From the IMG/VR virus record IMGVR_UViG_3300027805_000006: DNA of 64,000 bases; one strand, given 5' to 3'. This DNA comes from a virus. Its lineage: Duplodnaviria > Caudoviricetes. Shown piece by piece: positions 6,420-60,637 of the stretch. The position numbers were made by a program, and so were the translations under genes. Each line of letters opens with the position of its first letter. The stretch's first letter is position 1. The notes beneath the pieces are model-generated. The model was not told where the DNA came from. It saw nothing but the letters and a program-made list of their open reading frames with translations, and made no database searches.

Positions 6420-6970
6420 CAGATGCTCTTTATGACGTAGCCAACAGGTAGTGTGTCAAGCCCCTCTTGCAGGGTGTTGGTCCAGTAGCTATTTTGCGGT
6501 AGCTCTTCCCTCGTGAGGAGCCATTCGGTGGCGAAGTCAGTCTTGTCACCGCGGTGAACGTGCAAGAACCCACCCTCTGCTCTGAATACACGCTGCGTGA
6601 TGAAGGAGTAAATGCGCTCCTTGCGCTCGTGCTGATCTTGGTCCTTGGAATGTCGTGGTTCAGCCGTGAAGAATAGAGCGTCCATGTCGTGCTCACGCCA
6701 CACCTTGCGAACTGCGTTTAGCACCACGCCGTAGACCTTTACTGGAACTTCCTCTTGGCCTTCATGTGTTGAGTAGGCATCATCACCCTTCCTGTCCGTC
6801 CTGAAGAACGAGACCTCGTAAGTCCTCAAACGTGGAACGGCTGGTGCAGCGATCTTACTTAGCTGCACAGTAAAGAGTTGGTCACCCCATTTGAAATTTC
6901 CTTGCCGGCCCCAGTCTGTCTTATAGAGAATATCCGGGATCTCACTGTCAAGGATTTCTTGCATCTTCAT
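6419..6970 (-). CDS. hypothetical protein with MKMQEIL..E motif
   Basis: Coupled ORF; N-terminus resembles the 52-59 kb family. Confidence 0.7.
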   Translation of the reverse strand: MKMQEILDSEIPDILYKTDWGRQGNFKWGDQLFTVQLSKIAAPAVPRLRTYEVSFFRTDRKGDDAYSTHEGQEEVPVKVYGVVLNAVRKVWREHDMDALFFTAEPRHSKDQDQHERKERIYSFITQRVFRAEGGFLHVHRGDKTDFATEWLLTREELPQNSYWTNTLQEGLDTLPVGYVIKSI

Positions 6971-45277: not shown

Positions 45278-47578
45278 TTACATATTCTGTGCGGCTACGA
45301 AACCTAGCCAAGAAGTGCCGGCATTATAGGTAACCAGCGTAATAACGTCTATCTTAGTTGCAGTTGCTGTGAGTGAAGGTGCTGTACCATTTGGCCACTT
45401 CACCGCTGCGGGCCACACAATTTCTCTACCACCTGTTGCATCCTGCGTTATATACAGCGTCATAGAATAGTTTCTTCCACTTGCAGGAATGTTTGAGAAG
45501 GTAAGCGTTGTGATGTTAGCAGACATCGTCACCGTAAAGTTGTTTGCTGTGGAGCAATCAATGTTGGTGGTGGCAGAAGCAGTAACTGAACCTTGGAACT
45601 CGTCGTACTTAGTAAATGATGAAGGTACAGATACTGTTTGCCAGGTAGGTGCTGCATTTCCATTGGACGTTAATACCTGTCCAGATGTACCATATGCAGT
45701 GCCAGTACTACCAACTGACCAAGCGCCAGTAGCTAGGATACGGAAGCGTTCTGTTAGTGCCGTAACGCCAGTTTTAAATGATACATAACCATTGGTGATT
45801 GGACCCGTATTTGCATTTGCAATGCCACCCGAAATAATCACTGAGCCAACACTCTGAGTAGCGGCTTGAGCGTTTGCAGATGAAATGTTACCACCAGTAA
45901 TGTTAACATTGCCACCATACACATCCATAAAAGCAGCAGAAGCAACGTTACCACCGTTGACATTAACATCTGGTATAAAAGTTGCACTGTTTGGCCCTGT
46001 TGAATTTCCGGCTCGCAATGTTAACCTGCCAGGCGCGCCGCCAGTAGTGTCACCACCTCGGACAACTACATCACCTGCATAGTTGCTTGTTGTGTCTGAA
46101 CCACGAACTGTTGTAACTTGCCGTGTTGATGAGTTACCTTGCGTTCCACCGGCAATGGTGATATTACCTGCAGGTGCGCTCGAGACAGCATTACCAGATG
46201 TAATATTTACGTCGCCTCCTGGTCCAAAAGTGTTAGCATTTCCGCCCTTCAATGTAAGTGAGCCACCAGCACCTGTAGCTGCAAGTGCACCCGCTTGGAC
46301 AGTTAGTCGTGCACCGACTTCAGAAGCAGATTGATTGCCTTGAAGTGTTACTGCCGCTGTTCCATCACCAAATGTGGTAGTATTACCAAATGAAGATGAT
46401 CCTGCTGCAGTCTGCCAAGTAGGTGCAGAACCAGAGCCATTGGAAGTTAGTACCTGACCTGATGTGCCAGTTGCTATGAAACTAGTTGCGCCAGCACCCG
46501 TTTGATATGGGATTTGATTAGCAGAACCGCCTGCCAGGTTTGTGGCAGTTGTAGTACTTGATACATTCTGCCAAGTAGGTGCTGCATTTCCATTTGATGT
46601 TAACACCTGACCTGATGTGCCATAAGCAGTACCAGTACTACCAACTGACCAAGCACCATTCTGAAGAATACGAAAACGTTCAGTTGAAGTTGTTCCAGTT
46701 GTAAAGGATATCATACCTCCACCAGCACCAGTTCCTGTTGCGCCGGCCGCCAGCATAATAGAACCGGCTAGATTAGTGCCAGTTCCAGCACCAGCATTAA
46801 TCCAAATCATACCACCTTGCCCGCTTGGCGCAGCAGCTGCATCGATTGATATTCCCAAACCATTATTTGCATTTGCACTTGAAGCTATATTCAGTTGTTT
46901 ACCACCACTAGTTTTAACAGTTGCGGTGCTTCCACTGCTTGGTGTCAGCGATAGTGTTCCAGTACTATTGTCCCACGTAAATGAAGCGCTACCCGTCAGC
47001 AAGTTTGACCCACTTCCGTAGCCAATGTACGTAGAGGTCAGAGCAGAAGAACCTGAACTAAACTGAGCAAATGTAAGGGCAGTTGTTCCAATTGTAATAG
47101 TACCATTATTTGTAAGTACCCAGCCGGTATCTGCCTGTGTAGTTCCCTCTGTCACAAAGGTGAAATCACCTGCCTTTACCTCTGTTGTTGGCGCGCCATC
47201 AAAATCAGTTGAGCGTGTCCAAGAACCAGAAGCAACGACATAGATACCGTTTTGGGAACCAGTGTTTTGGTTCTTTACAAGTACTCTGTCTCCTGCTACC
47301 AGCACCACTCCGTCAATCGTTTGCGCTCCAGATAGCGTAATGTTGGCTGTAGTTGCGGCTCTTACTGCCGGCTTAACGTTTAGACTATCAAAACTTACGT
47401 TTCCTGAGCCTACTGCCTGCCATTCAGTGCCAGTATAAACATATAGCCCTTCATTGGGGCTATCTGTGCGGTAAAACAGTTCTCCGGTAGTTGGTGATCC
47501 TGGGTTTGAAGTTCCACTTGCAATTGTCAAATTTGAAACTGCAGTGCCTTCAGCAAGTGAAAGTCCATCGTAAAGCAT
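45278..47578 (-). CDS. tail fibre/adaptor protein, paralog 2 (766 aa)
   Basis: Same N-terminal ~175 aa; I.GG beta-helix-like repeats; C-terminal VKWPNGTAP...FVAAQNM domain. Confidence 0.8.
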   Translation of the reverse strand: MLYDGLSLAEGTAVSNLTIASGTSNPGSPTTGELFYRTDSPNEGLYVYTGTEWQAVGSGNVSFDSLNVKPAVRAATTANITLSGAQTIDGVVLVAGDRVLVKNQNTGSQNGIYVVASGSWTRSTDFDGAPTTEVKAGDFTFVTEGTTQADTGWVLTNNGTITIGTTALTFAQFSSGSSALTSTYIGYGSGSNLLTGSASFTWDNSTGTLSLTPSSGSTATVKTSGGKQLNIASSANANNGLGISIDAAAAPSGQGGMIWINAGAGTGTNLAGSIMLAAGATGTGAGGGMISFTTGTTSTERFRILQNGAWSVGSTGTAYGTSGQVLTSNGNAAPTWQNVSSTTTATNLAGGSANQIPYQTGAGATSFIATGTSGQVLTSNGSGSAPTWQTAAGSSSFGNTTTFGDGTAAVTLQGNQSASEVGARLTVQAGALAATGAGGSLTLKGGNANTFGPGGDVNITSGNAVSSAPAGNITIAGGTQGNSSTRQVTTVRGSDTTSNYAGDVVVRGGDTTGGAPGRLTLRAGNSTGPNSATFIPDVNVNGGNVASAAFMDVYGGNVNITGGNISSANAQAATQSVGSVIISGGIANANTGPITNGYVSFKTGVTALTERFRILATGAWSVGSTGTAYGTSGQVLTSNGNAAPTWQTVSVPSSFTKYDEFQGSVTASATTNIDCSTANNFTVTMSANITTLTFSNIPASGRNYSMTLYITQDATGGREIVWPAAVKWPNGTAPSLTATATKIDVITLVTYNAGTSWLGFVAAQNM

Positions 47579-47716: not shown

Positions 47717-49903
47717 TTAGAATAGATCATTCCAGATCGTTCCATTGTAGCAACGCAGCTTGTTGGATGTGCTATCATAATAAACATCTCCTGCTTCAGC
47801 AGATGCTGGCTCAGCCATTGGAACGTAACGCACGGCGCCATTTTCCTTAACTCGTACTCGCTCAGTAACTGTTGTTGTAGCAGCAGTGCTTAGCGAGATA
47901 TAACCTCCTGCTGCAGCAGAACGTCCGCCCCTAATGTTAACATTACCACCATTTGATGCAATGCCAGACAGTGATGCATTACCTGCAGTAATAGAAACAG
48001 AACCGCCAAGGCCGTTGGTATTAGTTGCAGAAAGTGAGCCACCGTTGATGAAAACGGCACCACCTCCACCATCAATTGTATTAGCGCCACCAGAGATTGT
48101 GACGCTGCCGCCGTTTGACCCACCTGAAATAGATGATGTACCACCAGTAATATTGATTGGCCCACCACCAGCGCCGGCGGCGGAGGTATTGGTGCCACCA
48201 GTAATGTTAACTGCACCACCAAGGAAGCCGCCGCCCGTTGAATTGCCTGCGGTAAGTGTGACTGCACCGCCATTAGCATTTGAAGAGTTACCGCCAACGG
48301 CTGAGACTGCAGTTCCAGTTGTTCCGCTTGTGCCTGCAAGGCTAGTGACTGAAAAAGTCTGCCAAGTAGGTGCTGCATTTCCATTGGAAGTTAGTACCTG
48401 ACCAGGTGTGCCATATGCAGTACCAGTACTACCAACTGACCAGGCGCCATTTGCTAGAATGCGGAAGCGTTCTGCTGATGCTGTTGTTAATACTATATAA
48501 CCAGCTGTTCCAGTACTCGTACCGCCTGCAATAGTAACGTTTCCACCTGCTAGTGCACCAGAAGAAATATTGCCACCTTGTATTTTAACATGTCCTGCAC
48601 TACCTATGGAGTTAGTAGCACTACCTAGAATTGTTAGCGTTCCTCCACCAACTACTCCACTTAGTGTTGTGCTTGCACCAGTGCCTGATGCACCAAGTTG
48701 AAGTGTATTTGCTGCTGATTCCCACGTAAAGTTGTTTGTTCCAGTTAATTGGTTAAACCCATTGCCATATCCGATATATGTGACAGTTAATGAAGGTGCT
48801 ACTGCAGACACCGCCTGCCAAGTAGGTGCTGCATTTCCATTTGATGTTAACACCTGACCTGATGTACCGTATGCTGTGCCTCCTGTGCCAACTGACCAAG
48901 CACCAGTAGCTAGGATACGGAAGCGTTCAACACCGGCTGCGGCTGCAACTTTACCAGTGGTGAATGAGACATAGCCGCTGTTCGCGAGCGTGTCCGAGCC
49001 ACCAGTCGCAAACAAGATATTTCCAGCAGAACCAGTCGCTGAATGTTGTCCAGTGGTGATGGTAATGTTACCAGCAGGATAAGCGTTCGAGCCCGAGCTA
49101 CCACCAGTAATTGTGACATCACCGCCACCTTGCGAAGCATTTGCACCCTGAATAGCCAACACGCCTGGTTTGGTATTCGCTGGTGAACTTGTGATAATAG
49201 TTAAACCACCGCTTCCAGCAGTAGTGCCAGTTGTGCTGCCAGCAATTACGCCTGCTGTTGCTGTTGTGCCGACACTTAATTTTGCTGCTGTATTGTCCCA
49301 CGTAAATGAAGCGCTACCCGTTAGCAAGTTTGACTCACTTCCGTAGCCAATGTACGTAGAGGTTAGCGCAGATGAGCCAGAACTAAACTGAGCAAATGTA
49401 AGGGCAGTTGTTCCAATTGTAATAGTACCATTATTTGTAAGTACCCAGCCAGTATCTGCAAAAGTAGTACCTTCGGTAACAAACACGAAGTCACCTGCCT
49501 TTACCTCTGTTGTTGGCGCGCCATCAAAATCTGCAGCGCGGGCCCAAGAACCAGAAGCAGCTACATAGATGCCATTTTGTGAGCCTGTAGATTGGTTCTT
49601 TACGAGAACTCTATCACCAGCAATAATAGAAACGCCATCAATTGTCTGTGTTCCAGAAAGAGTGATGTTTGCTGTTGTTGCTGCTCTTACTGCTGGCTTT
49701 ACATTTAGGCTGTCAAAACTTACGTCTCCTGAGCCTACTGCGTCCCACGATGCTCCAGAATAGACGTACAGCCCTTCATTGGGGCTATCTGTTCGATAGA
49801 ATAACTCACCAGTAGTTGGTGATGTAGGATTTGACGTGCCGCTCGCAATTGTCAAATTTGAAACTGAAGTGCCTTCAGCAAGTGATAGACCATCGTACAA
49901 CAT
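47717..49903 (-). CDS. tail fibre protein, paralog 1 (728 aa)
   Basis: Same N-terminus; Gly/Ser/Thr repeats; ends AGDVYYDSTSNKLRCYNGTIWNDLF. Confidence 0.8.
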   Translation of the reverse strand: MLYDGLSLAEGTSVSNLTIASGTSNPTSPTTGELFYRTDSPNEGLYVYSGASWDAVGSGDVSFDSLNVKPAVRAATTANITLSGTQTIDGVSIIAGDRVLVKNQSTGSQNGIYVAASGSWARAADFDGAPTTEVKAGDFVFVTEGTTFADTGWVLTNNGTITIGTTALTFAQFSSGSSALTSTYIGYGSESNLLTGSASFTWDNTAAKLSVGTTATAGVIAGSTTGTTAGSGGLTIITSSPANTKPGVLAIQGANASQGGGDVTITGGSSGSNAYPAGNITITTGQHSATGSAGNILFATGGSDTLANSGYVSFTTGKVAAAAGVERFRILATGAWSVGTGGTAYGTSGQVLTSNGNAAPTWQAVSAVAPSLTVTYIGYGNGFNQLTGTNNFTWESAANTLQLGASGTGASTTLSGVVGGGTLTILGSATNSIGSAGHVKIQGGNISSGALAGGNVTIAGGTSTGTAGYIVLTTASAERFRILANGAWSVGSTGTAYGTPGQVLTSNGNAAPTWQTFSVTSLAGTSGTTGTAVSAVGGNSSNANGGAVTLTAGNSTGGGFLGGAVNITGGTNTSAAGAGGGPINITGGTSSISGGSNGGSVTISGGANTIDGGGGAVFINGGSLSATNTNGLGGSVSITAGNASLSGIASNGGNVNIRGGRSAAAGGYISLSTAATTTVTERVRVKENGAVRYVPMAEPASAEAGDVYYDSTSNKLRCYNGTIWNDLF

Positions 49904-50001: not shown

Positions 50002-51534
50002 TTACAATATTGCAAATGGCATAGGCTCATCTTCAGCGCCATCTGCATCTTCACTTGGGTCTACATATTCATTTACTCTCTTGAATGCCTCATCATTCCA
50101 CTCTGACAGGCGCTTAAGTAGCCGTACTATGCCAATAGTTGCCATCACCGCATCATCAGTAGCACCTATTTTTGCTTCATAGGTACCACCTTTTGCAGTA
50201 AAGTTCTTCAGTTCAAATAGCAGGTGCTCAGACTTTACGTTTAATCCACCAGCAGTTTTTTCAATAAGTTGCTTCAATTGAAGACAGGATAATATTTTTG
50301 TCTTACCAGTGGTATAAATTCCAAATTTGCCAGGAGCATCAGAAAAAAGTTCAGCATGCTCTGGCTGATTCTCATCGTTCTGATAAAGCGCTGATACTGC
50401 CTCACCAATTCCATTGCGCTCAAACGTCCATAAAACCTCTGCCCGCCCTTTACCAGAATTCGTGCTCAACTTGTTGATAATCCACTTTAACTTTGCGTAG
50501 AACAACGGGATATTCACGTCATTTGTACGGTACTCAGCAACTTGGTTAAGTGAAGGAAATTCAAATACCTCAATGACGCTAAAGTCATTTCCACTTCCAG
50601 TTGCAGGGTCGCAGGAAACAAGGTATGTTTTTCCAATACCACCAATTTCTTCAGGTTTAACCCAAAACTTGAAGCCCATATCGCTATGACTTGGCTGACA
50701 GTGCGCAATTTGCTGCAGCCGCATTGAGTTGATTAATAGCGCATCTGACGAAAGGAATTCGACGCCGACCTCTTGTCTAGTTTTAAGTATACCCAGTTGA
50801 CCCACCATAAGGTCCCAGTATTCATTACCTCTATCTGGGTGCTCTCTCCAATGAACCTCAAATGGAATATATCCATTTGTTCCGGCTCTTGCGCCTCTCC
50901 ACAGTTGTGCAAATAGTTCAGTATCTCCATTTGGCGTTGAACTGATAATTGCAGAACCACCAGTAGAAAGGGTGGGTGAAAGTGATGCCCACATTTCTTG
51001 CTGTATGCGCGCATTTACATAGGCAAGTTCGTCTAGATACAGCTTTGATACTGATAGACCACGACCAGTCTTTTCAGTTGTTGCTTCAGATATAATTCTT
51101 GAGCCATTGTCCATCTCAAGGTTATGACGGTTGTAGTACTTAACACCAGGCTTCAGCCAATTTGGAAGTTGCTCATATGCAAATCTAATTCTTGCCGCAA
51201 TTTCCAAGGCGTGTGATTGGTTCTTTGAAGCAATGAGCACTGTCACGTCATTGGTGAATGATGCGTACCATAGAAGATACATTGCAGTCGTAATCGTCTT
51301 TCCCATTTGGCGTGGCTGAAGTGTAAGCACGAAGCGATTTTCGTGCAGGTGACGCACGTATCTTTCTTGATATTCGTAGAGATCAAAACTGACGGTGCCA
51401 CGAGTTGGGTGCTGAATTCTAACATACTTTTGCATAAAGTAGACAGGGTCTTTCTTGCACTTCATCAACTCCATCACCATATCTGGTGTGTATTCATCTT
51501 CAGCAAATGCTCTTTTGATCTGAGTGTTTTTCAT
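50002..51534 (-). CDS. terL: terminase large subunit (T4 gp17-like)
   Basis: DPVYF...LYEYQ, PRQMGKT Walker A, GRGLS..LYLDELA Walker B, SSTPNG, CDPATG..DFS nuclease, DDAVMA. Confidence 0.96.
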   Translation of the reverse strand: MKNTQIKRAFAEDEYTPDMVMELMKCKKDPVYFMQKYVRIQHPTRGTVSFDLYEYQERYVRHLHENRFVLTLQPRQMGKTITTAMYLLWYASFTNDVTVLIASKNQSHALEIAARIRFAYEQLPNWLKPGVKYYNRHNLEMDNGSRIISEATTEKTGRGLSVSKLYLDELAYVNARIQQEMWASLSPTLSTGGSAIISSTPNGDTELFAQLWRGARAGTNGYIPFEVHWREHPDRGNEYWDLMVGQLGILKTRQEVGVEFLSSDALLINSMRLQQIAHCQPSHSDMGFKFWVKPEEIGGIGKTYLVSCDPATGSGNDFSVIEVFEFPSLNQVAEYRTNDVNIPLFYAKLKWIINKLSTNSGKGRAEVLWTFERNGIGEAVSALYQNDENQPEHAELFSDAPGKFGIYTTGKTKILSCLQLKQLIEKTAGGLNVKSEHLLFELKNFTAKGGTYEAKIGATDDAVMATIGIVRLLKRLSEWNDEAFKRVNEYVDPSEDADGAEDEPMPFAIL

Positions 51535-52109
51535 ACTTCTCTCTCAAAAAGAAAGTCTTCTATAAGCGAAATAGTTTTTTCGTGCATTACGACCTCAAAG
51601 TGGTTGGCTTTGACCTCTACCTTTTTTCCATATGGCAGCGCCTTTTGGCTGGCAATAGTTACAACGCTGTCATTTTGTTCAGAAGTGGTTGGCAAATTAC
51701 CGCCAACAGAAATAATTGATAGTAGTGGTGCCTTAATTTTCAGGGTGGTGAGACGGGAAATTGTTGCAGACCCAGGAGTAATGTCTTCAAAAACCTTCGG
51801 GTAACCAGGAACCCAGCGAAGGGCAATTGCTGCTTTTGAACCACCGAATGGTGCTGAAATGGAAACTATAGCCTTTACACGGTTTTGCAACTTCTCAGCA
51901 AGATAAACCGCTGCGAGCCCACCAAGTGAATGTGTCACAAATGAGAAGGGCGTTTTTGGTAACTGTTTCTCGATGTCAACAAGGCTCAGCGCAAATGGCT
52001 GATGACTGTCGAAGTTTATGGGAATAATTTCGTGTGCAGGAAGTTTGTTCTGAATATAATTAAACGACCTATGACTAGAATTAAAACCGTGAAGATAGCA
52101 GACTTGCAT
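51531..52109 (-). CDS. alpha/beta hydrolase (esterase/lipase-like)
   Basis: LHGFNSS oxyanion loop, THSLGG nucleophile elbow, PFGGS, DSVV, ANHF. Confidence 0.85.
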   Translation of the reverse strand: MQVCYLHGFNSSHRSFNYIQNKLPAHEIIPINFDSHQPFALSLVDIEKQLPKTPFSFVTHSLGGLAAVYLAEKLQNRVKAIVSISAPFGGSKAAIALRWVPGYPKVFEDITPGSATISRLTTLKIKAPLLSIISVGGNLPTTSEQNDSVVTIASQKALPYGKKVEVKANHFEVVMHEKTISLIEDFLFEREV

Positions 52110-52143
52110 TGAAAGTAGATAATAGTTTATCTACTATTTACTG

Positions 52144-52884
52144 TCATTTTTCAGCAAGTTTCTTTAGTTGCTCAAATTCAACAAGCGGTTTTTTACCAGT
52201 GCTTTTGCTCTCAGCCTTAATACCACCGGCATCTAGCCACATCTGCTTTATGAAGCGGCGCATTTCTGGAGAAGCATTCTTTCCGGTATCTACCCATTTT
52301 TTCCAAAGTTCAGACATTTTCTGCGTTACTTGAGCAGCATTAATGCCACTTGACACGGGTGGTGCGACTTCCTTTTCCTTGTCACCTTCAGCAGGCTTTT
52401 CGCCTTCCTTCTCAGCAGGCTTTTCGCCTTCCTTCTCAGCAGGCTTTTCGCCTTCCTTCTCAGCAGGCTTTTCAGCAGGCTTTTCAGCAGGCTTTTCAGC
52501 AGGCTTCTTGTCAAATGCGGGGTTATAGAGCATTGACCCCTTTGGTGCAAAAGTCAGACCTGCTTCAATATATGTTACAACTGGAGAGTCTTCTCTGAAT
52601 TTAACGTTTGTTTTGGTGTTTACCCAGCCGTCTGCTTTTTTCTCAAATGGCTTTCCATTAAAAGTTGCTGTATCACCAGTTTTAAATGACTTCTTTTCAC
52701 CGTGCTTTGTGGCATAATCTTCAGCAAATTCTTTTTCCTTTTGATACTCTTCTGGAGTAGCAGGTGCTTCAAACAGTTTTTGAAGAGATGTGCCCTCTGC
52801 AGTTTCCCTCCAGAAATCAAAAAAGGCTTCAATGTCTTCTTGAACTCTGTCTTCTAGTAGTTGAGAAAGGTGGCTAAGTTTCAT
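52144..52884 (-). CDS. putative internal head protein with KPAE repeats
   Basis: MKLSHLSQLLE start; TATAAATA promoter at 52906-52913. Confidence 0.7.
   Translation of the reverse strand: MKLSHLSQLLEDRVQEDIEAFFDFWRETAEGTSLQKLFEAPATPEEYQKEKEFAEDYATKHGEKKSFKTGDTATFNGKPFEKKADGWVNTKTNVKFREDSPVVTYIEAGLTFAPKGSMLYNPAFDKKPAEKPAEKPAEKPAEKEGEKPAEKEGEKPAEKEGEKPAEGDKEKEVAPPVSSGINAAQVTQKMSELWKKWVDTGKNASPEMRRFIKQMWLDAGGIKAESKSTGKKPLVEFEQLKKLAEK
52389..52508. repeat. 24-bp x3 plus 12-bp x4 tandem repeat (KPAEKEGE / KPAE)
   Basis: CAGCAGGCTTTTCGCCTTCCTTCT x3, then CAGCAGGCTTTT x3 and one variant. Confidence 0.95.
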
Positions 52885-52908
52885 TGTATCCTCAGAACTT
52901 TTGTTTAT

Positions 52909-53259
52909 TTATAATGCTACACCCTTGCCGTTAATACTGGTTAGTAGCCAGTATCCTTCAGGCATTTTCTTTAAAGTTAAGTTCTCATCATCGTTTTTAA
53001 TGAGTTCAAACCACTGTCCTGGTGAGGTGTTATAAATTCTGAATTCATTATTTCCTAATGACGTATGAATTTCAACCTTTGTGATGTCCCATATCTGGTA
53101 TGGGGGTGATGACTTAATTGATAAGGAAGCATTTCCAACTGCATATCCATCTTTTATTGCAACCTTCAGCGGCTTATGTGCTTGGTACAACTTAAGCAGC
53201 ATTTTTCCGATAAAAACATCCGGAATGCTGTCTTCCTCGAAGAGTTCAAACATCTTCAT
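52909..53259 (-). CDS. putative internal head protein
   Basis: MKMFELFEE start. Confidence 0.7.
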   Translation of the reverse strand: MKMFELFEEDSIPDVFIGKMLLKLYQAHKPLKVAIKDGYAVGNASLSIKSSPPYQIWDITKVEIHTSLGNNEFRIYNTSPGQWFELIKNDDENLTLKKMPEGYWLLTSINGKGVAL

Positions 53260-53666
53260 CGTGGGCTATGCCCCCATACCTTTAGAGAAAGTAACTTTCT
53301 GGTTGGCTCACCATTTTCGTCATACAGTGGTCCAGCCGCACCCTTCATTCTGCTAATGAAACTTACCTGCTTACCGGCCCATCGCCAGTCATTTGCGTCC
53401 CAGTCTTTTACTGGTCGCTTCTTCATGCTGATTATGTGTTTGGCTGACTGGCGACCAGTGCTAATTCCAAGTTTTGATGCCACTGATTGCTTTAGCCCAG
53501 GATGCTTCTTCGGATCAGACTTGGCTAACTCAAGTTGGCGATCTAACCATTTTTCCAGGCTTTCAGCAGACATATTGACAAGAGTTTTCCAGCGAGAATA
53601 CAAATCCTGTCGGCGCTTCTTTTCGCTGTCAGAAACTTCTTCAGTTAAAATTTCAGAAACTCTCAT
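53256..53666 (-). CDS. DUF3140-like protein with MRVSEILTE start
   Basis: LVNMSAESLEKWL...GRQSA..I...SLKVWGHSP matches the DUF3140 pattern as I recall it. Confidence 0.65.
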   Translation of the reverse strand: MRVSEILTEEVSDSEKKRRQDLYSRWKTLVNMSAESLEKWLDRQLELAKSDPKKHPGLKQSVASKLGISTGRQSAKHIISMKKRPVKDWDANDWRWAGKQVSFISRMKGAAGPLYDENGEPTRKLLSLKVWGHSPR

Positions 53667-53914
53667 TTTTTATCCTTTGCCTTTTTCCAAAGGTCCTTAT
53701 CAGCTTTTCTAGCTGGCCCGTTTGTTAAAAACGATGAAACTCTTGCATGTGCCCATTGGTGCTGACTTACACCAGGCCTATGACCAGTTCTCCACGCTGC
53801 TGCACCTCTGTTCCAAACCTTCCTAAGGATTGATACCGAAATACCTGTCTTCTCAGCCTTATTCTTCAGAGCGGTATCAACGCTTCCTTCAGTAAGGAGT
53901 TCAGTTAGCTTCAT
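53663..53914 (-). CDS. small basic putative internal protein
   Basis: Start reassigned to MKLTELLTE; KAEKTGIS..ILRKVWNRGAAAWRTGHRPG..QHQWAHARVSSF motif. Confidence 0.75.
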   Translation of the reverse strand: MKLTELLTEGSVDTALKNKAEKTGISVSILRKVWNRGAAAWRTGHRPGVSQHQWAHARVSSFLTNGPARKADKDLWKKAKDKK

Positions 53915-54230
53915 TTGAATACACCAGTAGGCGCCCATTAGAACCTTTTTGGAAGTGCAGTCGTCCGTCGTCCAGCATATCCTTCGTATAGACGATGTAA
54001 CGGTGTCCAGTTACCTGAGCAATCACCGAGAGCTCGAGCGAACCATCAGGACGAAGTTGGTAGCCGCTGATCTTCATCGGTTCATTCTCAATCTCCTTGT
54101 CCAGCAGCTTTACCGGCTGTCCTTTATTCTTGACGTGATCGGCAATAGTGCGCTTCAGCATTGATACTAGAATTGGTAAGTCTGCGCTTTCAGCCACGCT
54201 TACTTCAGTAAGGAGTTCAATAACCTTCAT
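53901..54230 (-). CDS. putative internal head protein
   Basis: MKVIELLTE start. Confidence 0.7.
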   Translation of the reverse strand: MKVIELLTEVSVAESADLPILVSMLKRTIADHVKNKGQPVKLLDKEIENEPMKISGYQLRPDGSLELSVIAQVTGHRYIVYTKDMLDDGRLHFQKGSNGRLLVYSNEAN

Positions 54231-54850
54231 TTGCCAAATCTCCGTTCAAACTTCTTGGTGTGTTCTGACTTAGGAAGGTTTTTGCCCTTCTTCTTCAACT
54301 CAGCCTTGTACTTTTGGTCTGCTGTCCAATCATCGGGGTAGGCGGCTGGGTCAGTGTGTTCCATATCTTTAAAGCGCTTTATTTCACGTGTCATCTCAGC
54401 CTTCAGTTCTTTTTTCCTTGATGACCCTTTAAAGTTAAGATAACTCTTCTTTATTTTTTCTTCATTAGTTACCTGTTCTCTATCAATAATTGTCCAAACG
54501 CCATTTATCTTCTTAATGGTATAATTGTCATCAATGGGTCTTTCAAATTCGAAGAGCATAGTGCTCGTAGCACCACGGCCATACAACGCAAACTCCTTAT
54601 AAGGGCTAATGTGCAGTTGATCGTTGTTTATGGCACGTCTAAGTATGTCGACTGGATCAACGAGCATATACTCTGCCTGCACTACCCATCCTTCCTTAGT
54701 GCTGCGCATCGCCTGATATCCACGCTGTGTATTACCAGACAGGAAGGTACGTCCCTTCGCATTGACATAGATGGGCTTTTTAGCCTTTACTAGTTTGAGC
54801 AGCATAGTAGCTAATATGCTTTCATTCTCGAATAACTGAGCGAGCTTCAT
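54227..54850 (-). CDS. putative internal head protein (two domains)
   Basis: MKLAQLFENE start; basic C-terminal DPAAY...KSEHTKKFERRFG domain. Confidence 0.7.
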   Translation of the reverse strand: MKLAQLFENESILATMLLKLVKAKKPIYVNAKGRTFLSGNTQRGYQAMRSTKEGWVVQAEYMLVDPVDILRRAINNDQLHISPYKEFALYGRGATSTMLFEFERPIDDNYTIKKINGVWTIIDREQVTNEEKIKKSYLNFKGSSRKKELKAEMTREIKRFKDMEHTDPAAYPDDWTADQKYKAELKKKGKNLPKSEHTKKFERRFGK

Positions 54851-55149
54851 TCGTTTGGTGCAATCTGTGCGTCATAGTACTTGTGCTGGGAGTGGTCAAT
54901 CTTTCCAGTCTTCTGGTCAATCTTTCCACCATAGTGTGCTGCCTGGCGCTCAATTCTTTTGAAAAGTTCAGCCATTGCCTTCATAATAACTTCGTGGCTA
55001 TATGGCTTTTCTGGATTGGTTGCATCTAACATCTTAAAGTCAGGATTAATCTCTGCGTGTCTTTCAGCGTCTGGTGCAATAGGAACTTCAGGAGCAGAAT
55101 TTCCTGCAGCAATAATGTGTTTAGCTTTTATTAATTCACTTACCTTCAT
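54847..55149 (-). CDS. putative internal head protein
   Basis: MKVSELI start. Confidence 0.65.
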   Translation of the reverse strand: MKVSELIKAKHIIAAGNSAPEVPIAPDAERHAEINPDFKMLDATNPEKPYSHEVIMKAMAELFKRIERQAAHYGGKIDQKTGKIDHSQHKYYDAQIAPNE

Positions 55150-55151
55150 AG

Positions 55152-55607
55152 TTATTCTTCTTTGTTCTTAGGTACAAATTTTTCAGATAGTTCTTTTATC
55201 CACTCTAGCGCTACTGGAAGAGCGTCTTTTGGTGAAGCAAAGCGCTTGGAGTTTTTTGCTTTTAAAACTTGAGTTAGGCTTTGACCATCACTCATTGAAA
55301 CATACCAGCCACTCTCATTCTTAACACCATGCTTTTCTGGTGCAAAGGTGTAAATTACTGCTACCCACCCAACATTTGCTTTACCATTTTTTGCAGGTCT
55401 AATTAGTTTTGCACGCAAAATTCTTTGCTTTGGAATTCCAAACTTCCCACCCGATTTAATTGTACTCTGTTCAATTTTATCAGCGTATGGCTTAAGCGCC
55501 CTTGAAAAAAGGTTAAACATAAAATCTACTTCTTCATCGGTTTGTTGTTCAACCTCCAACTTTTCCTTAGATTTTTTTGCTGCTTCTACCAGGTTATGAA
55601 GTTTCAT
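55152..55607 (-). CDS. putative internal head protein
   Basis: MKLHNLVEAA start; AGGA RBS. Confidence 0.7.
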   Translation of the reverse strand: MKLHNLVEAAKKSKEKLEVEQQTDEEVDFMFNLFSRALKPYADKIEQSTIKSGGKFGIPKQRILRAKLIRPAKNGKANVGWVAVIYTFAPEKHGVKNESGWYVSMSDGQSLTQVLKAKNSKRFASPKDALPVALEWIKELSEKFVPKNKEE

Positions 55608-55638
55608 TGCTAGTTCCTACCTTACTTTTTTGTGCTGT

Positions 55639-56145
55639 TCAACTGAACTTCACAATTCCCTGCGAAACTGTGGGTAGAATAATGGTAATTGAAACATTAG
55701 GTGTAGGATAAACTACGCTCAATGGAGTAACTTCGGAAAGAACAGTTTGCGTTACATCCCACGTATAGACCTTTATTTCGGGGTCATATCCAAGGTTATG
55801 CGTTACTGCCCAAGTGTTAGAATCTGATGTTTGGTAATGAGTGAAGTTAAGCCCCTGTAGAGCAAGTGCATTCTTCATTCTGTACCTGAAACTCGTAGTG
55901 CCAAGATTAGTTTCTGCTTGAACTGCAGATAGAAGAGAGTTAGCCATAGAATACCAAGCAGCATCAAATGCAGCATCATCTAGATATACAGTTCCTACGA
56001 GGGCAACTCTATCTTGTTCAAGTTGCTCTACCCAGTTTGAAAGTTGATTTACAACGCTCTTTAAAACAGCAACTTCAGTTCTTAACTCATTTCTTCTGTC
56101 ATGAAGAGAATTTACTATTGGTACACCTGATGGAAATGCTGACAT
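55639..56145 (-). CDS. hypothetical structural protein
   Basis: Coiled coil plus C-terminal W.VTHNLGYDP motif seen in fibre-associated beta domains. Confidence 0.65.
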   Translation of the reverse strand: MSAFPSGVPIVNSLHDRRNELRTEVAVLKSVVNQLSNWVEQLEQDRVALVGTVYLDDAAFDAAWYSMANSLLSAVQAETNLGTTSFRYRMKNALALQGLNFTHYQTSDSNTWAVTHNLGYDPEIKVYTWDVTQTVLSEVTPLSVVYPTPNVSITIILPTVSQGIVKFS

Positions 56146-56159
56146 GCTTCGCCTTTGTA

Positions 56160-56657
56160 TTATTTCTTCTTACGTGATTTTAGATTCTTTTCAACTTCTC
56201 TTTCTTCTATCTCTTTTAATCCGTGTTCTACAGATATATGCGCCTTGGCAACATATTGTTTTATTGCCTTAAGCAACTCGGTGGGAGTTCCCTTCATTGT
56301 TTTTGGGCGACGCATTCCGATTGTTAGTTGTGCGTACCACTCTCCATCCCTGTAGTATATGAAATATTGAACTTTTCCTCTCGATGCGATGTCTATAACA
56401 TCAAAAGCATAGCCAGGAATTACAAGGTATTTTTCTCTAAACTTCTGTACTTGAGGAATTTTCAACAAACCAAATATTGTGCTGACACCATAAGAAGCAG
56501 GCACTACAAGAAAAGGATGTGAGTCTGGTGGAAGTGACTTCAGAAACATCTTATTAATAAAGTCAATTTCCTCCTGAGTTTCATGATCAACGGTCGGGGC
56601 TGCTTTATAGCCACGATTGCGATGATTAGCAGCCTCAACTAATTGAGAAAGAATCAT
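56160..56657 (-). CDS. putative internal head protein
   Basis: MILSQLVEAA start. Confidence 0.7.
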   Translation of the reverse strand: MILSQLVEAANHRNRGYKAAPTVDHETQEEIDFINKMFLKSLPPDSHPFLVVPASYGVSTIFGLLKIPQVQKFREKYLVIPGYAFDVIDIASRGKVQYFIYYRDGEWYAQLTIGMRRPKTMKGTPTELLKAIKQYVAKAHISVEHGLKEIEEREVEKNLKSRKKK

Positions 56658-57046
56658 GCAAGATTTTCCATCTTATATTTAATTCTAGCAACAATGGCTT
56701 GAAGTTCCTCAAACTTATTCACCAAGAAGCCATCTTGCGGAATTATCTCGTGTTGCATTTCAAGGAAATGATACAACTGCGCAACAAATTCTTGTGGTGT
56801 ATTTTCACTAAAAATATTCGGTTCGCTTATTTCAATCCAAGTTTCAGTACCATATCCACCCATGTAGATTTCCATAAGATCATCTATTAGTTCATTCATG
56901 CCATCGTACAGCTCGCCGAGCGCCATGTGCTGTGAAAAGGATTTAACCTTCCAATGCCACATTCTAGCGGTGTTTTGAGCAGCTAGTAGGTGTGATACTA
57001 ATTCACCAATAGCTTCATCGTTTTTCTTATTGTTGTTATTATCCAT
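56654..57046 (-). CDS. ferritin/Dps-like four-helix protein
   Basis: RMWHWKVKSFSQHMALGELYD...IDDLMEIYMG resembles the Dps HW...H..L.E.Y...D...E motif; GAGG RBS. Confidence 0.7.
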   Translation of the reverse strand: MDNNNNKKNDEAIGELVSHLLAAQNTARMWHWKVKSFSQHMALGELYDGMNELIDDLMEIYMGGYGTETWIEISEPNIFSENTPQEFVAQLYHFLEMQHEIIPQDGFLVNKFEELQAIVARIKYKMENLA

Positions 57047-57159
57047 TATTTCCTCTTAAAGAAGTTAATTACTGTCCATTGGTACAAAACATAGATGCGT
57101 TTTTGCTTATTTCAACAATGATTTATACCATGTTTTATTTACTTTTCCGGGTAGAATTG

Positions 57160-57399
57160 TTATCTATTTTTCATACTTTTCGTAAAAATATGCTCTAAAA
57201 GCATAAAATCAGAAAAGGTTAGTGCTGTATTTTCACCCATCATCTTCTTGAAGATGCCAGTGGTATAGGCCCAAAATCGTTTTGTCCCATGCTTGAATTT
57301 TTCTTCAGCAGATTTTTTAGCAGATTCCCAACGCTCCTCTGCCTTACTCATTGAGACACCATGTTTTTCAGCGTATTTTTTAACTAAAGTTGCTGGCAT
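57160..57399 (-). CDS. small basic hypothetical protein
   Basis: Start MPATLVKKYAEK; WESAK..A...FWAYTTGIFKKM; ends LTFSDFMLLE. Confidence 0.7.
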   Translation of the reverse strand: MPATLVKKYAEKHGVSMSKAEERWESAKKSAEEKFKHGTKRFWAYTTGIFKKMMGENTALTFSDFMLLEHIFTKSMKNR

Positions 57400-57413
57400 A
57401 TTATTCTCACAGT

Positions 57414-57806
57414 TCAAATTTTAGTAGGTGCAGTTTGTGGTTCCGCACTGCCAGGATATTCTTTGGCTTCGCCTGAAAGCTGTTCTAGAAAAACTGGTTT
57501 TAAAATCTTATCGCGCACAAGTTCCTTGAAGTTTGGCTTAACATCTGCGCGAACCTTTACCACAACCCTGTTGCTGTTGCCCATAAGAGGTCTAGACCCA
57601 AAAATTCCAGCAGTTGCGCTAATTGACCATTTATTTTCGCCAAAAGTACGATCAAAAATGCCCGCAGTAATTGGCCAAACTGGCCAGGCAACAATCGGCC
57701 TGACTACATAGTCCTTGTACTCAATCTGCTGTTCTGGTTCCCATTCGCCCTCCCAGTCATCATCTTGAGATAGCTTTGCAGTTTCAAAAAGTTCTGTCAG
57801 TTTCAT
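57414..57806 (-). CDS. putative internal head protein
   Basis: Start reassigned to MKLTELFE (57806); the upstream part of the track ORF overlaps another gene. Confidence 0.7.
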   Translation of the reverse strand: MKLTELFETAKLSQDDDWEGEWEPEQQIEYKDYVVRPIVAWPVWPITAGIFDRTFGENKWSISATAGIFGSRPLMGNSNRVVVKVRADVKPNFKELVRDKILKPVFLEQLSGEAKEYPGSAEPQTAPTKI

Positions 57807-57807
57807 T

Positions 57808-58353
57808 TTAACCAAACTTTTTCTTGAGGGCGGCTCTAAGAGCATCTGCCTTCGCTGCACTAATAAGTTTTGAAGTATTTTGCTGCTGTGAAATTGCTCC
57901 ATAGGCAGACTTAAGCTTTTCATCCTTTGTTTTTTTATGAACACGTGAATTATACAGCCAAGCTGCCATTGCCAAAACACCAATATCTCCGTCGCGATAC
58001 CTTGCCCAACGTCCTTCTGCATCAGATGCGCCGCTGTCATTCCATTTTTCTAAAATACGCGCTTCATTTGCTGGAGATTTTGATTTAAACATTACTCTGC
58101 TAATAATTTTTTTCCCATCAGAAGTTTCTATACGAACAAATACACCACGAAGTGCATTAAAGACTCTGATTAAAATATTTCCAAGACCCATTTTGATTCG
58201 TTCAGATTTTACTTCTTTTCCAACCTTCAGTACCTTTTCTGCAGTATCATCATCAACGACGACTAATTCATTTGGTTGGGTGTCAAGAAATGATGCAGCT
58301 TTATTCATGGCAAGCTGATTAGCATTTTCATTTAATAGCTCATGGATTTTCAT
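57808..58353 (-). CDS. putative internal head protein
   Basis: MKIHELLNE start. Confidence 0.7.
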   Translation of the reverse strand: MKIHELLNENANQLAMNKAASFLDTQPNELVVVDDDTAEKVLKVGKEVKSERIKMGLGNILIRVFNALRGVFVRIETSDGKKIISRVMFKSKSPANEARILEKWNDSGASDAEGRWARYRDGDIGVLAMAAWLYNSRVHKKTKDEKLKSAYGAISQQQNTSKLISAAKADALRAALKKKFG

Positions 58354-59156
58354 TTTTGCACAGATATTTGCTTAATCAGAGTTGGTAAATGTGTCTCAAG
58401 CCATTGCACATATTGCTGACTTGAGTACTTGTTTGCATTTTTTGTGATTGTGGCAATAAATTGAGTTCCAACATGATCTGCAATAAGTTGCCCAAATGAT
58501 GATTTTGCACCCTGCCCTGAGACCGTCTTATCAACGCCAAATTCATGTGTTCGTTGGCCCGTCTTAATTCCACTATCTGCTAACCACTTCTTTACGACTG
58601 CAACTAGGTCCTTTTCAACACTGGGGTCATAGTAGTAGAACTTCAATGAGTCATTGTGTGACATAAAATAATCCAAATGACGGTGTGTCTTGAAGCTAAT
58701 CGGCGTCTGCTTATCATTTGAAAAATCGCGTATCTTTGAAATGAGCGTGTTGAATGATTTTAGAAACTTTGCGATATTTTCTTTTGTACGCTCAACCGTG
58801 ATATAGTAGTTCAATGTGCGGTCTTGGCCTGTTTTTCTTGGTATGTTAGCATTTATATCAACTTGTGCCCACGGTCCGCCGCCGCCAGTATTGAAGAATT
58901 TTCCGCTAAAGTAAGTCTTCCACGCGTTTACAGCGGTGTCATCAAAGCCAACCTGCTTTGCCTTTCCTATTTTGGCAATATCAACATCATTTACAACGAT
59001 GTCATATATAATTGACTTTATTTCTTTTTGAAGAGTAGAATTACTGGTATCAACTACTAGATCTGAAATAAGTTTTTCTAATTTTGCTTTTACGGGAGCA
59101 AAGTTAAACTGCTGAGCTTCAGCCAAAACCTGTAGATAAATGTCAGCCAGTTTCAT
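58350..59156 (-). CDS. putative internal head protein (268 aa)
   Basis: MKLADIYLQVLAE start. Confidence 0.7.
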   Translation of the reverse strand: MKLADIYLQVLAEAQQFNFAPVKAKLEKLISDLVVDTSNSTLQKEIKSIIYDIVVNDVDIAKIGKAKQVGFDDTAVNAWKTYFSGKFFNTGGGGPWAQVDINANIPRKTGQDRTLNYYITVERTKENIAKFLKSFNTLISKIRDFSNDKQTPISFKTHRHLDYFMSHNDSLKFYYYDPSVEKDLVAVVKKWLADSGIKTGQRTHEFGVDKTVSGQGAKSSFGQLIADHVGTQFIATITKNANKYSSQQYVQWLETHLPTLIKQISVQK

Positions 59157-59163
59157 TTTACAC

Positions 59164-59367
59164 TCATCTAATATTAAGTTTAGCCTTAAGCTCCTCTAGA
59201 CCTTCTGTTCCGCTGATATTCTCTTTCTCAGCCGCTTTAGGGTCAGTAAGCGTTAGTTTCCAATTACCACCATTACCTGCTTTAGCCTTACGAAGGTATG
59301 CTGGTGTTTTAACACGAGTTGATGCCTTTGGGGCAGCAGCTGTTTCTAGTAGTTGACTAACTTTCAT
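59164..59367 (-). CDS. small putative internal head protein
   Basis: MKVSQLLE start. Confidence 0.65.
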   Translation of the reverse strand: MKVSQLLETAAAPKASTRVKTPAYLRKAKAGNGGNWKLTLTDPKAAEKENISGTEGLEELKAKLNIR

Positions 59368-59606
59368 TTTTGATATTGTCCTTTCAGTACCACTTTAAAT
59401 GTTCCTAAGTCTGTCGATACATAAAGATTGTGCGCTATTTCCTTTGAAGGATTTGCAGTGACCATATGGTTGTGTGCGTCAATTGCTTCCCTCTTGCTTT
59501 GGAAATACTTTACTGCATCGTTCATCTTACTTTCAACGCCATTATTATTTAGGCGGTGCAGCCAAATATTAGTGCGTTTTTTAGACCACATTTCATCAAT
59601 CTTCAC
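59364..59606 (-). CDS. small putative internal head protein
   Basis: MKIDEM start; coupled to neighbours. Confidence 0.6.
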   Translation of the reverse strand: MKIDEMWSKKRTNIWLHRLNNNGVESKMNDAVKYFQSKREAIDAHNHMVTANPSKEIAHNLYVSTDLGTFKVVLKGQYQK

Positions 59607-60067
59607 TTTGTTTCCTTCGTTTCAGCGTCAATTGACATCATTTTCAGTATTTCCTCTCGGCTTGCAACAACTAGACCATTTGGATTTTTTGAAGCGTATG
59701 GAACAAATGCTGACGCCTTCTTTCTATCGCCGCGCACCTTAGCCTTTGTTGCTGCTGCATTCAGCGCAATATTGAGGTAGTTAGCAGCAACCTCAGCATT
59801 GCGGGCGGCATATCTTGGCTCAGTTATTTCAGCAAACTGCATCTGCTGCTGGAACGTGTCATATGCAGCATCATAGACTTGGTCAATCTTTTTGTCAATC
59901 TCAACATCCTCTGGCTCAACTTCAGTAGAAGGAGCAGGTGCTTGAAAAGATGCAAGAGTTGCTTCAGTCATTATACTGTACTCAGTGACATCTCTGACAG
60001 GCTCCTCAGTTTGGAATAAATCATCAAGTGGATGAATATACTTGCTGTCAGGTTGAAGCGTTTTCAT
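59603..60067 (-). CDS. probable terminase small subunit (gp16-like)
   Basis: Helical core PRYAARNAEVAANYLNIAL and C-terminal VVASREEILKMM resemble gp16 PRAYEV...FVGSTxELxK; start likely MKTLQP. Confidence 0.5.
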   Translation of the reverse strand: MKTLQPDSKYIHPLDDLFQTEEPVRDVTEYSIMTEATLASFQAPAPSTEVEPEDVEIDKKIDQVYDAAYDTFQQQMQFAEITEPRYAARNAEVAANYLNIALNAAATKAKVRGDRKKASAFVPYASKNPNGLVVASREEILKMMSIDAETKETK

Positions 60068-60163
60068 TTTGTTCCCCACTGCTAAAATAATAAAAGAGCA
60101 CCTTTTGCCCCTAGATTATCCGTTACTGGTTGATAAAGAGTTTTTATCTTTCTTGCCAGCACT

Positions 60164-60637
60164 TTAGACAGCATTACCGGGCGCTGGTGGCTTTCTTTTA
60201 TTTATGCCTCCCCACAGCGTTTTCTCTGTTACAACACGGAAATGCGCGCCCATTTGATTGGCATATGCTGATGCCGCTGCCCATTTTGCTTGATTTACCA
60301 CAAGCGCCATCTTGTCTCTGTCAGTCATCTTGGGAGTTGGCACTGTTTGTGAGTAGGGCTTTATCTCAACTATTTCTTTTCGAACACTACCATCTTTGTG
60401 CTTATACAAAACAATAATATCGGGGAAATAGCGATGAACTCGGTTGTCGAGTGGGCTTACATATGGAATAATGAGTTCTTCTGAACCAAATTTTAGAACT
60501 GCAGGATTTTGGTCAAGCCATTTCATAAAAGCAAATTCCCATGAGGATCTAAAAAAAATATTATTCGCATTCCCAAGATACTTCTGTGGATTTTGGCAGA
60601 TAAACCTGCCACGCATCGTAGAATTTGCGCCCTTCAT
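60164..60637 (-). CDS. head completion nuclease (T4 gp4-like, TnsA-type PD-(D/E)xK)
   Basis: GRF...NPQKY.G....FRSSWE, GSEE..IPY.SP.D.R.HRYFPD, VEIKP, VNQAKW. Confidence 0.92.
   Translation of the reverse strand: MKGANSTMRGRFICQNPQKYLGNANNIFFRSSWEFAFMKWLDQNPAVLKFGSEELIIPYVSPLDNRVHRYFPDIIVLYKHKDGSVRKEIVEIKPYSQTVPTPKMTDRDKMALVVNQAKWAAASAYANQMGAHFRVVTEKTLWGGINKRKPPAPGNAV

Follow-up and report, generated by a model that had tools for sequence, protein, structure and literature searches.

What does a short peptide do that opens one small phage protein after another, mostly on bodies that are otherwise dissimilar? The proteins are encoded by an array of 17 genes (52144-59606, minus strand) in a stretch of 64,000 nucleotides, hereafter the window, from the caudoviricete IMG/VR record IMGVR_UViG_3300027805_000006. 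The array lies between the gene for a T4 gp4-like head completion protein and that for the terminase large subunit (TerL), an interval referred to here as the slot. All open reading frames and N-termini listed in a first-pass annotation were found on the minus strand. From sequence comparison, the peptide is well supported as a T4-type capsid targeting sequence (CTS), and because 12 of the 17 genes start with this T4 head-loading tag, the tagged proteins are probably head-packaged, protease-trimmed cargo.

The tag was defined as M-[KRI]-[LVIM]-x-x-[LIM], reaching [LIVMF]-x-E within the first 13 residues; outside the array, internal starts were allowed as well. Clean tags were found on 12 of the 17 array genes: MKLSHLSQLLE, MKMFELFE, MRVSEILTE, MKLTELLTE, MKVIELLTE, MKLAQLFE, MKLHNLVE, MILSQLVE, MKLTELFE, MKIHELLNE, MKLADIYLQVLAE and MKVSQLLE. 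Two genes carry the degenerate versions MKVSELIK and MKIDEM, which lack the final h-x-E (h, hydrophobic), and an N-terminal tag is missing from three (55639-56145, the Dps-like 56654-57046 and 57160-57399). The initial count of about 14 tagged proteins is made up of these twelve clean and two degenerate tags, with three further array genes untagged. Among the 61 called window genes outside the array the pattern occurred once, at a doubtful internal start only (Fisher p = 1.7e-9), and a random N-terminus is expected to match it at 0.0007 per gene. The motif is concentrated in the array and not equally frequent elsewhere in the window. Far from the array, a 183-aa gene at 6419-6970 starts MKMQEILDSE and is a possible extra tagged protein.

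The genes are translationally coupled, as had been proposed, through nine 4-nt ATGA overlaps and one 14-nt overlap; the remaining junctions are gaps of 1-31 nt, with a single exception of 113 nt. This tight spacing bears on an explanation at the nucleotide level, by which the conserved element is a signal for translation initiation or coupling, or a site of recombination that shuffles cassettes, and the peptide is a by-product. ATGA overlaps and A-rich starts (ATGAAA or ATGAAG) are indeed common, and 16 nt of tag DNA are identical in one gene pair. However, different tags use different codons for the conserved Leu and Glu without any change of residue, which argues for selection on the peptide; the h-x-E site is kept also where it is internal, and the motif runs 24-39 nt into the coding sequence. 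A nucleotide-level origin is therefore regarded as extremely improbable.

In T4, a CTS is reportedly carried by IPI, IPII, IPIII, Alt and gp24 and removed by gp21, a description that goes back to Mullaney and Black in 1996. Both the T4 CTS and its removal by gp21 have been reviewed (PMC9026906; PMC5694885). The T4 tags, taken from NC_000866, read MKTYQEFIAE in ipII and ipIII, MELITELFDE in alt and MAKINELLRE in gp24. We distinguish class A tags, of the type M-K-h-x-[EQ]-L-(h)-x-E with 8-13 residues, from class B tags of the TFKQFLxE type, which resemble those of the T4 internal proteins (IPs). In the window, MKLTELFE and MKVIELLTE belong to the alt/gp24 type. Within the T4 tag, targeting depends on residues 4 and 7, and processing by gp21 on residues 8 and 10 (PMC9026906). 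Hydrophobic residues at the positions matching the T4 targeting sites are kept in the window tags together with the final h-x-E, and 12 of the 17 finish in [LIVMF]-x-E, corresponding to the gp21-type site (L/I)-x-E.

A protease of the gp21 type is encoded in the same genome. The head module beyond the window was reached via three chained exact-protein look-ups, and about 19 kb past the window end it contains a Peptidase_S77 (PF03420) of 203 aa that itself starts MKILTE (L064:9349-9960); the contig carrying it matches the window exactly over 11.6 kb. The gene order is portal, Peptidase_S77, a 143-aa gene, scaffold and Gp23 capsid protein, the last with LLE and LME sites near its N-terminus. Peptidase_S77 is also encoded by the relatives G001, G002 and RsoM2USA, and the protease of this clade has more than 4,000 metagenome relatives; the window genome's own protease was absent among the best 120 listed homologues of the G001 protease. 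The 143-aa gene between protease and scaffold genes (L064:10487-10918, GTG start) bears the class A tag KLSEIIVE. Just past the window end, the tail sheath gene is followed directly by five small genes (L061:6353-8310), four with class B starts (MMTFKQFLLE, MKTFKHFLLE, MQKTFKQFITE and MKTFKQFLG) and one starting MLLTEILD.

The bodies behind the tags had been described as otherwise dissimilar. This is mostly true, with the qualification that BLASTP recovered two pairs of paralogues (52909/54227 and 55152/56160). In an iterated profile search, 52909-53259 and the N-terminal part of 54227-54850 joined a family of about 110 aa that is common in relatives. The product of 53901-54230, not retrieved by the profile search for this family and without BLASTP similarity, was added to the alignment by hand, as were three genes of the L061 cluster that the profile search did not retrieve. 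The remaining array bodies had no mutual similarity in BLASTP or profile searches. Most of the cargo remained without a family in Pfam and PHROG searches; sequence searches of the PDB returned nothing useful for the proteins with DUF5824 and DUF3140, and the Atlas nothing for 57808-58353. The tag thus stands on bodies as unlike as DUF5824, DUF3140, a lyase-like fold, a small unassigned fold and orphans. In the predicted structures of the 268-aa protein (58350-59156) and the 116-aa protein (52909-53259), the tags are outside the folded bodies. The AlphaFold2 model of the former has a predicted local distance difference test score (pLDDT) of 86.6, with residues 1-13 disordered (pLDDT <50); that of the latter (pLDDT 79) begins with a coil over residues 1-15 (1-5 <50), after which come a single helix and a beta sheet, and no significant fold match was obtained for it (Foldseek best E = 0.25; VIA-wide best Z = 3.9).

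The slot was compared in the window and 19 IMG/VR loci whose TerL is 61-78% identical. Wherever both anchors were present, the set of slot genes changed from locus to locus. Slot proteins of relatives start with MKVSELFE, MKVHQLLEEE, MITFKQFLAE, MKTFKQFLAE, MRFKQFLE and similar sequences. The 179 distinct slot proteins of the 20 loci fell into 46 single-linkage families, and at least 70 were tagged. The conserved slot members are all untagged: an 'NPLDELF' protein, a Dps-like DUF5856 protein, an alpha/beta-hydrolase and a protein of about 250 aa (starting M.ILSKRAK), which is encoded between hydrolase and TerL in most relatives and is missing from the window. The sequence LTFSDFMLLE, noted earlier near the C-terminus of 57160-57399, is present at residues 60-69, and its counterparts in relatives (MTFGEYLLLE, VTLKEWMMLE and VTFSEWLLFE) are likewise internal, with up to about 320 residues of cargo after them. 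In G001 (L035:17353-19687; L036, 157-162 kb) and in RsoM2USA ORF254/255, the slot cargo differs from that of the window and consists of paralogues of about 250 aa with a conserved 'YRG' motif and of Walker-A (GxPGAGKS/T) proteins, with tags MITFKQFLxE or MRFKQFLE; neither group had a Pfam match. The TerL neighbourhood of XacN1 was not syntenic and had no tags, and the XacN1 paper holds no data on such tagged proteins.

Within the family of about 110 aa, some members carry class A tags (MKVQELFE type) and others class B tags (MMTFKQFLAE type), which makes the two classes interchangeable forms of a single signal. This swap bears on the question whether the shared N-terminus might simply be the conserved first helix of one fast-diverging, tandem-duplicated family, with no role in capsid addressing. 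Common descent accounts for the two paralogue pairs and for the two array genes of the 110-aa family, and it would suit the tag DNA common to the neighbours 53663 and 53901 as well as the large RsoM2USA family of about 200 aa that starts MKLxEI. It does not fit one tag before a lyase-like alpha/beta fold, a small helix-plus-beta fold, DUF5824 and DUF3140, nor the position of the tag outside the folded body, the exchange for a T4-like TFKQFLxE tag inside one family, or the match to T4 tags in a phage with the matching protease. Simple paralogy is accordingly considered quite unlikely.

Virion proteomes are available for two relatives. In RsoM2USA, ten proteins, including ORF89 (28.57 kDa) and ORF257, were assigned through LC-MS/MS (liquid chromatography coupled to tandem mass spectrometry) to the principal bands of purified virions (PMC8504454). 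ORF89 corresponds to RsoM2USA 66030-66791, has a computed mass of 28.56 kDa and starts MKTFKQFLSE. ORF257 lies inside a five-gene cluster extending from TerL to the gp4-like gene, where its neighbours start MTTFKEYLLE, MNQTFKQFLTE, MKFSDYILE and MRLKQFLME. The mass of 17.57 kDa printed for ORF257 is incompatible with cleavage after a Glu and was not used as evidence. ORF89 has a leucine-rich-repeat-like body, and its neighbours ORF87, ORF88 and ORF90 start MKLSEA, MKLHEI and MSFKTFLE. In PA5oct the gene order is that of the window phage: sheath, tube, tube, gp4-like, gp283, the slot genes gp282 and gp281, and TerL. RefSeq carries a note of electrospray ionization tandem mass spectrometry (ESI-MS/MS) on gp281 and gp282 and on gp279, which starts MKLFEVF; the main text of the PA5oct paper makes no mention of these three.

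These proteomes resolve the virion and not the head, and the array is situated among tail tube, head completion and fibre genes. The tag could on these grounds send its proteins elsewhere in the virion (tail, neck or baseplate), or to a different proteolytic or degradation system, and not to the prohead core. Against such an address stand the specific gp21 site at the end of the tag, the match of the tag to T4 head proteins only, the start MKILTE of the protease itself, and the LLE and LME sites in the N-terminus of the capsid protein; we judge it very unlikely. The T4-type CTS reading of the first-pass annotation is well supported by the T4 tag match, the terminal (L/I)-x-E, the phage's own S77 protease, the unrelated folds, the class exchange and the virion proteins of relatives.

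Are the array genes expressed at the time of head assembly? TAAATA is the core of the T4 late promoter. It occurs 21 times on the coding strand of the window, 12 times in non-coding DNA, which makes up 6.9% of the window (p = 1.8e-9). Ten of the 12 intergenic cores (63067, 62100, 57141, 52911, 52140, 49961, 47611, 40327, 30652, 23426, 18617 and 10415, minus strand) are located 27-58 nt upstream of a gene start, and the genes that follow such cores include those for tail tube and fibres, the hydrolase and TerL as a pair, the one for the Dps-like protein, and 52144-52884. The array's only long gap, of 113 nt, contains a late-promoter-like core at 57136-57141 (minus strand), with similar cores at 52906-52913 and 52135-52140. 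TAAATA is probably the late promoter core of the window phage, and its placement would therefore assign the array to transcription units like those of structural genes. Exact matches to the T4 late promoter TATAAATA were not enriched in the window (5 versus 2.5 expected); one of them is found 27 nt upstream of 52144-52884. In a freshwater metatranscriptome of 2017, 24 contigs shared at least 99% identity with 50.7-64 kb of the window; they included pieces of the array, and their depth peaked on the tail tube gene.

We regard it as likely, judging from the genes, that the slot from the gp4-like gene to TerL is a hyperplastic IP locus of packaged and cleaved cargo. Most slot genes would encode a cargo body behind a capsid targeting sequence of 8-13 residues, M-K-h-x-[EQ]-L-(h)-x-E, and would be expressed late, together with the structural genes. 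The tag would dock each protein to the scaffolding core while the prohead assembles, and the gp21-type Peptidase_S77 would cut after the tag Glu (P3 = L/I/V/F, P1 = E). Once mature, the proteins would stay beside the DNA in the head, and most probably they would exit with it at infection. The internal proteins of T4 are basic, and the pI is at least 9.3 in 10 of the 17 array proteins; many of the cargo proteins are small and basic and may bind DNA like IPII and IPIII, and the lyase-fold protein would act on phosphoproteins. For the window phage, docking, cleavage, ejection and an effector or anti-defence role are all inferred from this comparison.

Several observations weigh against the packaged-cargo reading. 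Five array genes are without a clean tag, and the window tags are one to two residues shorter than those of T4. The data on RsoM2USA and PA5oct establish presence in the virion, not location in the head or cleavage, and the PA5oct slot proteins carry degenerate tags only. The late expression is deduced from the motif alone, and the metatranscriptome signal could include carried-over DNA. Moreover, no array protein had a PHROG or Pfam match to T4 IPI, IPII, IPIII or Alt, to internal virion proteins or to ADP-ribosyltransferase families.

The tag may also be a true CTS whose cargo is structural, with prohead core, scaffold-helper or DNA-condensing proteins for a very large head, many of them degraded or inert, and no arsenal of effectors. 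Most of the proteins are small, basic and devoid of enzyme motifs, a class A tagged gene lies within the head module, and the conserved slot genes include one for a Dps-like DNA-binding protein. Core proteins that bear a tag or are cleaved include gp67, gp68 and gp22 in T4. For IPII and IPIII, no effector function is known (PMC9026906). In contrast, the fast turnover of cargo between close relatives is better explained by an arms race, one cargo protein has an effector-type lyase fold, and P-loop proteins are tagged in relatives. A purely structural cargo appears rather unlikely to us, yet a part of the tagged set may consist of ordinary core proteins or of head proteins that bind DNA.

The most interesting single lead of the array is the 268-aa protein (58350-59156), for which a HopA1/LanY/OspF-type lyase fold is predicted. 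Foldseek matched the model to LxmY (E = 1e-4) and HopA1 (E = 4e-4), and the top 20 VIA matches were all phospho-Ser/Thr lyases or HopA1. The VIA Z scores were 10.4 for LxmY, 8.4-9.6 for lyase domains of class III lanthipeptide synthetases, 8.5-9.3 for HopA1 and 7.0-8.2 for SpvC/OspF/VirA (SpvC 8.2). Sequence identity to these lyase-fold matches is about 10-13%, no Pfam PF17914 match was obtained at E <= 0.1, and Atlas neighbours of the protein include HopA1 clusters. In 14 homologues (34-82% identity), [LIF]-x-E directly precedes the body and Glu13 is invariant in all; three metagenomic homologues (P0008-P0010, about 463 aa) have an N-terminal extension of about 200 residues ahead of the same h-x-E site. 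The residues invariant in the family, K156-T157-H158, K172, Y176, R202 and H204, are reminiscent, in composition, of SpvC with its K-x-H, Lys, Tyr and Arg set. The catalytic residues of SpvC are K104, H106, K136 and Y158, and HopA1-like LanY proteins are proven lyases (PMC9486802).

If the model is taken further, the tagged class A and B proteins of this widespread clade of freshwater jumbo phages would form an 'injectome' that can be read from sequence and that enters the host along with the DNA. At the least, the 268-aa protein would be a pre-made phospho-Ser/Thr lyase that irreversibly strips phosphates from host proteins within seconds of the onset of infection, so as, for instance, to disable defence or signalling based on kinases. 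This extension is offered tentatively, with clearly more doubt than confidence. To our knowledge, no phospho-Ser/Thr lyase activity of a phage-packaged protein has been described.

The genes of the slot, all on the minus strand, are given here from the upstream anchor onwards, with a slash after the last residue of each clean tag. The gp4-like head completion protein (phrog_218) is encoded at 60164-60637 and is followed by a conserved untagged 158-aa 'NPLDELFxTE' protein (59603-60079) that bounds the slot and is homologous to RsoM2USA ORF259. The array begins with an 80-aa gene with a GTG start and the degenerate tag MKIDEMWSKK (59364-59606), whose relatives start MKLSE[VI] or MRVAELME, and a 67-aa basic protein (59164-59367; MKVSQLLE/T). 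The 268-aa protein with the predicted phospho-Ser/Thr lyase fold follows (MKLADIYLQVLAE/A), then a 181-aa basic orphan (57808-58353; MKIHELLNE/N) and a 130-aa orphan (57414-57806; MKLTELFE/T), the true start of which is within a longer open reading frame. The 79-aa protein at 57160-57399 has no N-terminal tag; a conserved N-module 'AEKHGVS..W..AK' is followed by the internal class-B-like LTFSDFMLLE (57193-57222). The untagged Dps-like protein (56654-57046; DUF5856, phrog_858) is kept in the slot of 13 related loci. The 165-aa basic protein at 56160-56657 (MILSQLVE/A) is the paralogue of the 151-aa basic protein at 55152-55607 (MKLHNLVE/A), and between them lies an untagged acidic protein of 168 aa with a weak match to phrog_21918 (55639-56145).

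The second half of the array continues with a 100-aa protein with the degenerate tag MKVSELIK (54847-55149), whose orthologues start MKVSELFE, MKVKELFE, MKVAELFD or MKAHELFD. The 207-aa basic protein at 54227-54850 (MKLAQLFE/N) has the 110-aa cargo family as its N-terminal part. The tag DNA of the 109-aa protein at 53901-54230 (MKVIELLTE/V) is near-identical to that of the next gene (GAACTCCTTACTGAAG), which encodes a very basic protein of 83 aa with its tag fused to a DUF5824 domain at residues 25-79 (53663-53914; MKLTELLTE/G). In a 136-aa basic protein the tag is fused to a DUF3140/DUF6321-like body (53256-53666; MRVSEILTE/E), and the orthologues start MKVTELLIE or MKLNELLTE. The 116-aa protein at 52909-53259 (MKMFELFE/E) represents a small helix-plus-beta cargo family with class A or B tags in relatives, and the 246-aa protein at 52144-52884 (MKLSHLSQLLE/D) contains PAEK/EGEK repeats at about residues 137-170. 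Directly upstream of TerL (50002-51534; PHROG match and TerL comparison), which is the downstream anchor of the slot, an untagged alpha/beta-hydrolase-like protein (51531-52109; HGFNSS...THSLGG) is conserved in 14 loci.

The window has a G+C content of about 42%, and nearly every gene is on the minus strand. PHROG matches were obtained for TerL, three fibre-like proteins, a UvsX-like recombinase, the T4 gp4-like head completion protein and two tail-tube-like proteins. Identity of TerL is 47% with its counterpart in the Ralstonia jumbo phage RsoM2USA and 35-42% with those of XacN1, PA5oct, Atu_ph07 and Rak2-like phages; the window TerL is less than 60% identical to that of every phage in the searched collection, T4-like phages included. 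A megablast search of the phage collection with 50-60 kb returned no match, and near-identical DNA is absent from that collection. The window sequence is also present on a contig of 329,993 bp, corresponding to a phage genome of about 330 kb, and a 106-kb ENA contig equals the window over 11,580 nt with zero mismatches. From the core genes, the TerL identities and these contig matches, the phage is an uncultured freshwater jumbo myophage with T4-type core genes, belonging to the RsoM2USA/XacN1/PA5oct/Rak2 group. Its three fibre-like proteins (38833-40290, 45278-47578 and 47717-49903) have almost identical N-termini (MLYDGLSLAEGT.VSNLTIASGTSNP) and share a domain of about 120 residues, followed by differing C-terminal parts.

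Should the tags act as they do in T4, one could read from sequence which proteins are injected or lie inside the head in a large, mostly uncultured clade of giant phages. In that case, the slot next to TerL would offer many candidate early-acting factors in one place, for example proteins that counter defence, modify the host or protect DNA. The T4 capsid-loading code would also be conserved across very distant myophages, suggesting that T4 packaging tools could be moved to jumbo phages with larger heads. The first-pass annotation had further presented the tag as a portable capsid-loading tag; to call it new in this respect is unjustified because the T4 CTS has been in that use since 1996.

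Among known systems, the HopA1/LanY/OspF-SpvC lyases share the predicted fold with the 268-aa protein, in whose own family K-T-H, Lys, Tyr and Arg are invariant; the protein of the window differs in that it is phage-borne, bears a capsid tag and has no kinase partner nearby. In giant phages of the phiKZ/SPN3US type, head-internal proteins are likewise cut by a gp21-like protease at x-x-E and many are ejected; there, the propeptides of ejection proteins mostly comprise 80-130 residues and the cleavage motif is (S/A/G)-x-E (PMC5694885; PMC7411985). They share no common decapeptide, unlike the short T4-style tags of the window phage, and no description of such tags in its jumbo clade was found in the literature searched. 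Variable IP loci and CTS-like basic proteins occur in T2, T6 and other T4 relatives (PMC9026906 section 3.1). There too, variable small tagged proteins accompany conserved core head genes and are read as an arms race with host defences, while the present case stems from a distant jumbo clade known mostly from metagenomes, is larger in scale and includes enzyme-like cargo. The closest parallel is the CTS of T4 itself. Both systems have a short N-terminal tag (8-13 residues in the window, 10-19 in T4), ELLxE/ELFxE as in gp24 and Alt, a terminal (L/I)-x-E and a gp21-family protease, and MKTFKQFLAE of relatives compares with MKTYQEFIAE of T4; in both, the cargo is unrelated, often basic and non-conserved, and the locus varies between relatives. 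The window differs in having 12-14 tagged genes in one array, compared with three IP genes and Alt in T4, in the position of the locus between the gp4-like gene and TerL of a jumbo phage of about 330 kb, and in an internal copy of the motif after a 55-aa N-module in one family. None of its cargo is homologous to any T4 IP. With these likenesses and differences, the array is probably a new and unusually large case of the known T4 mechanism.

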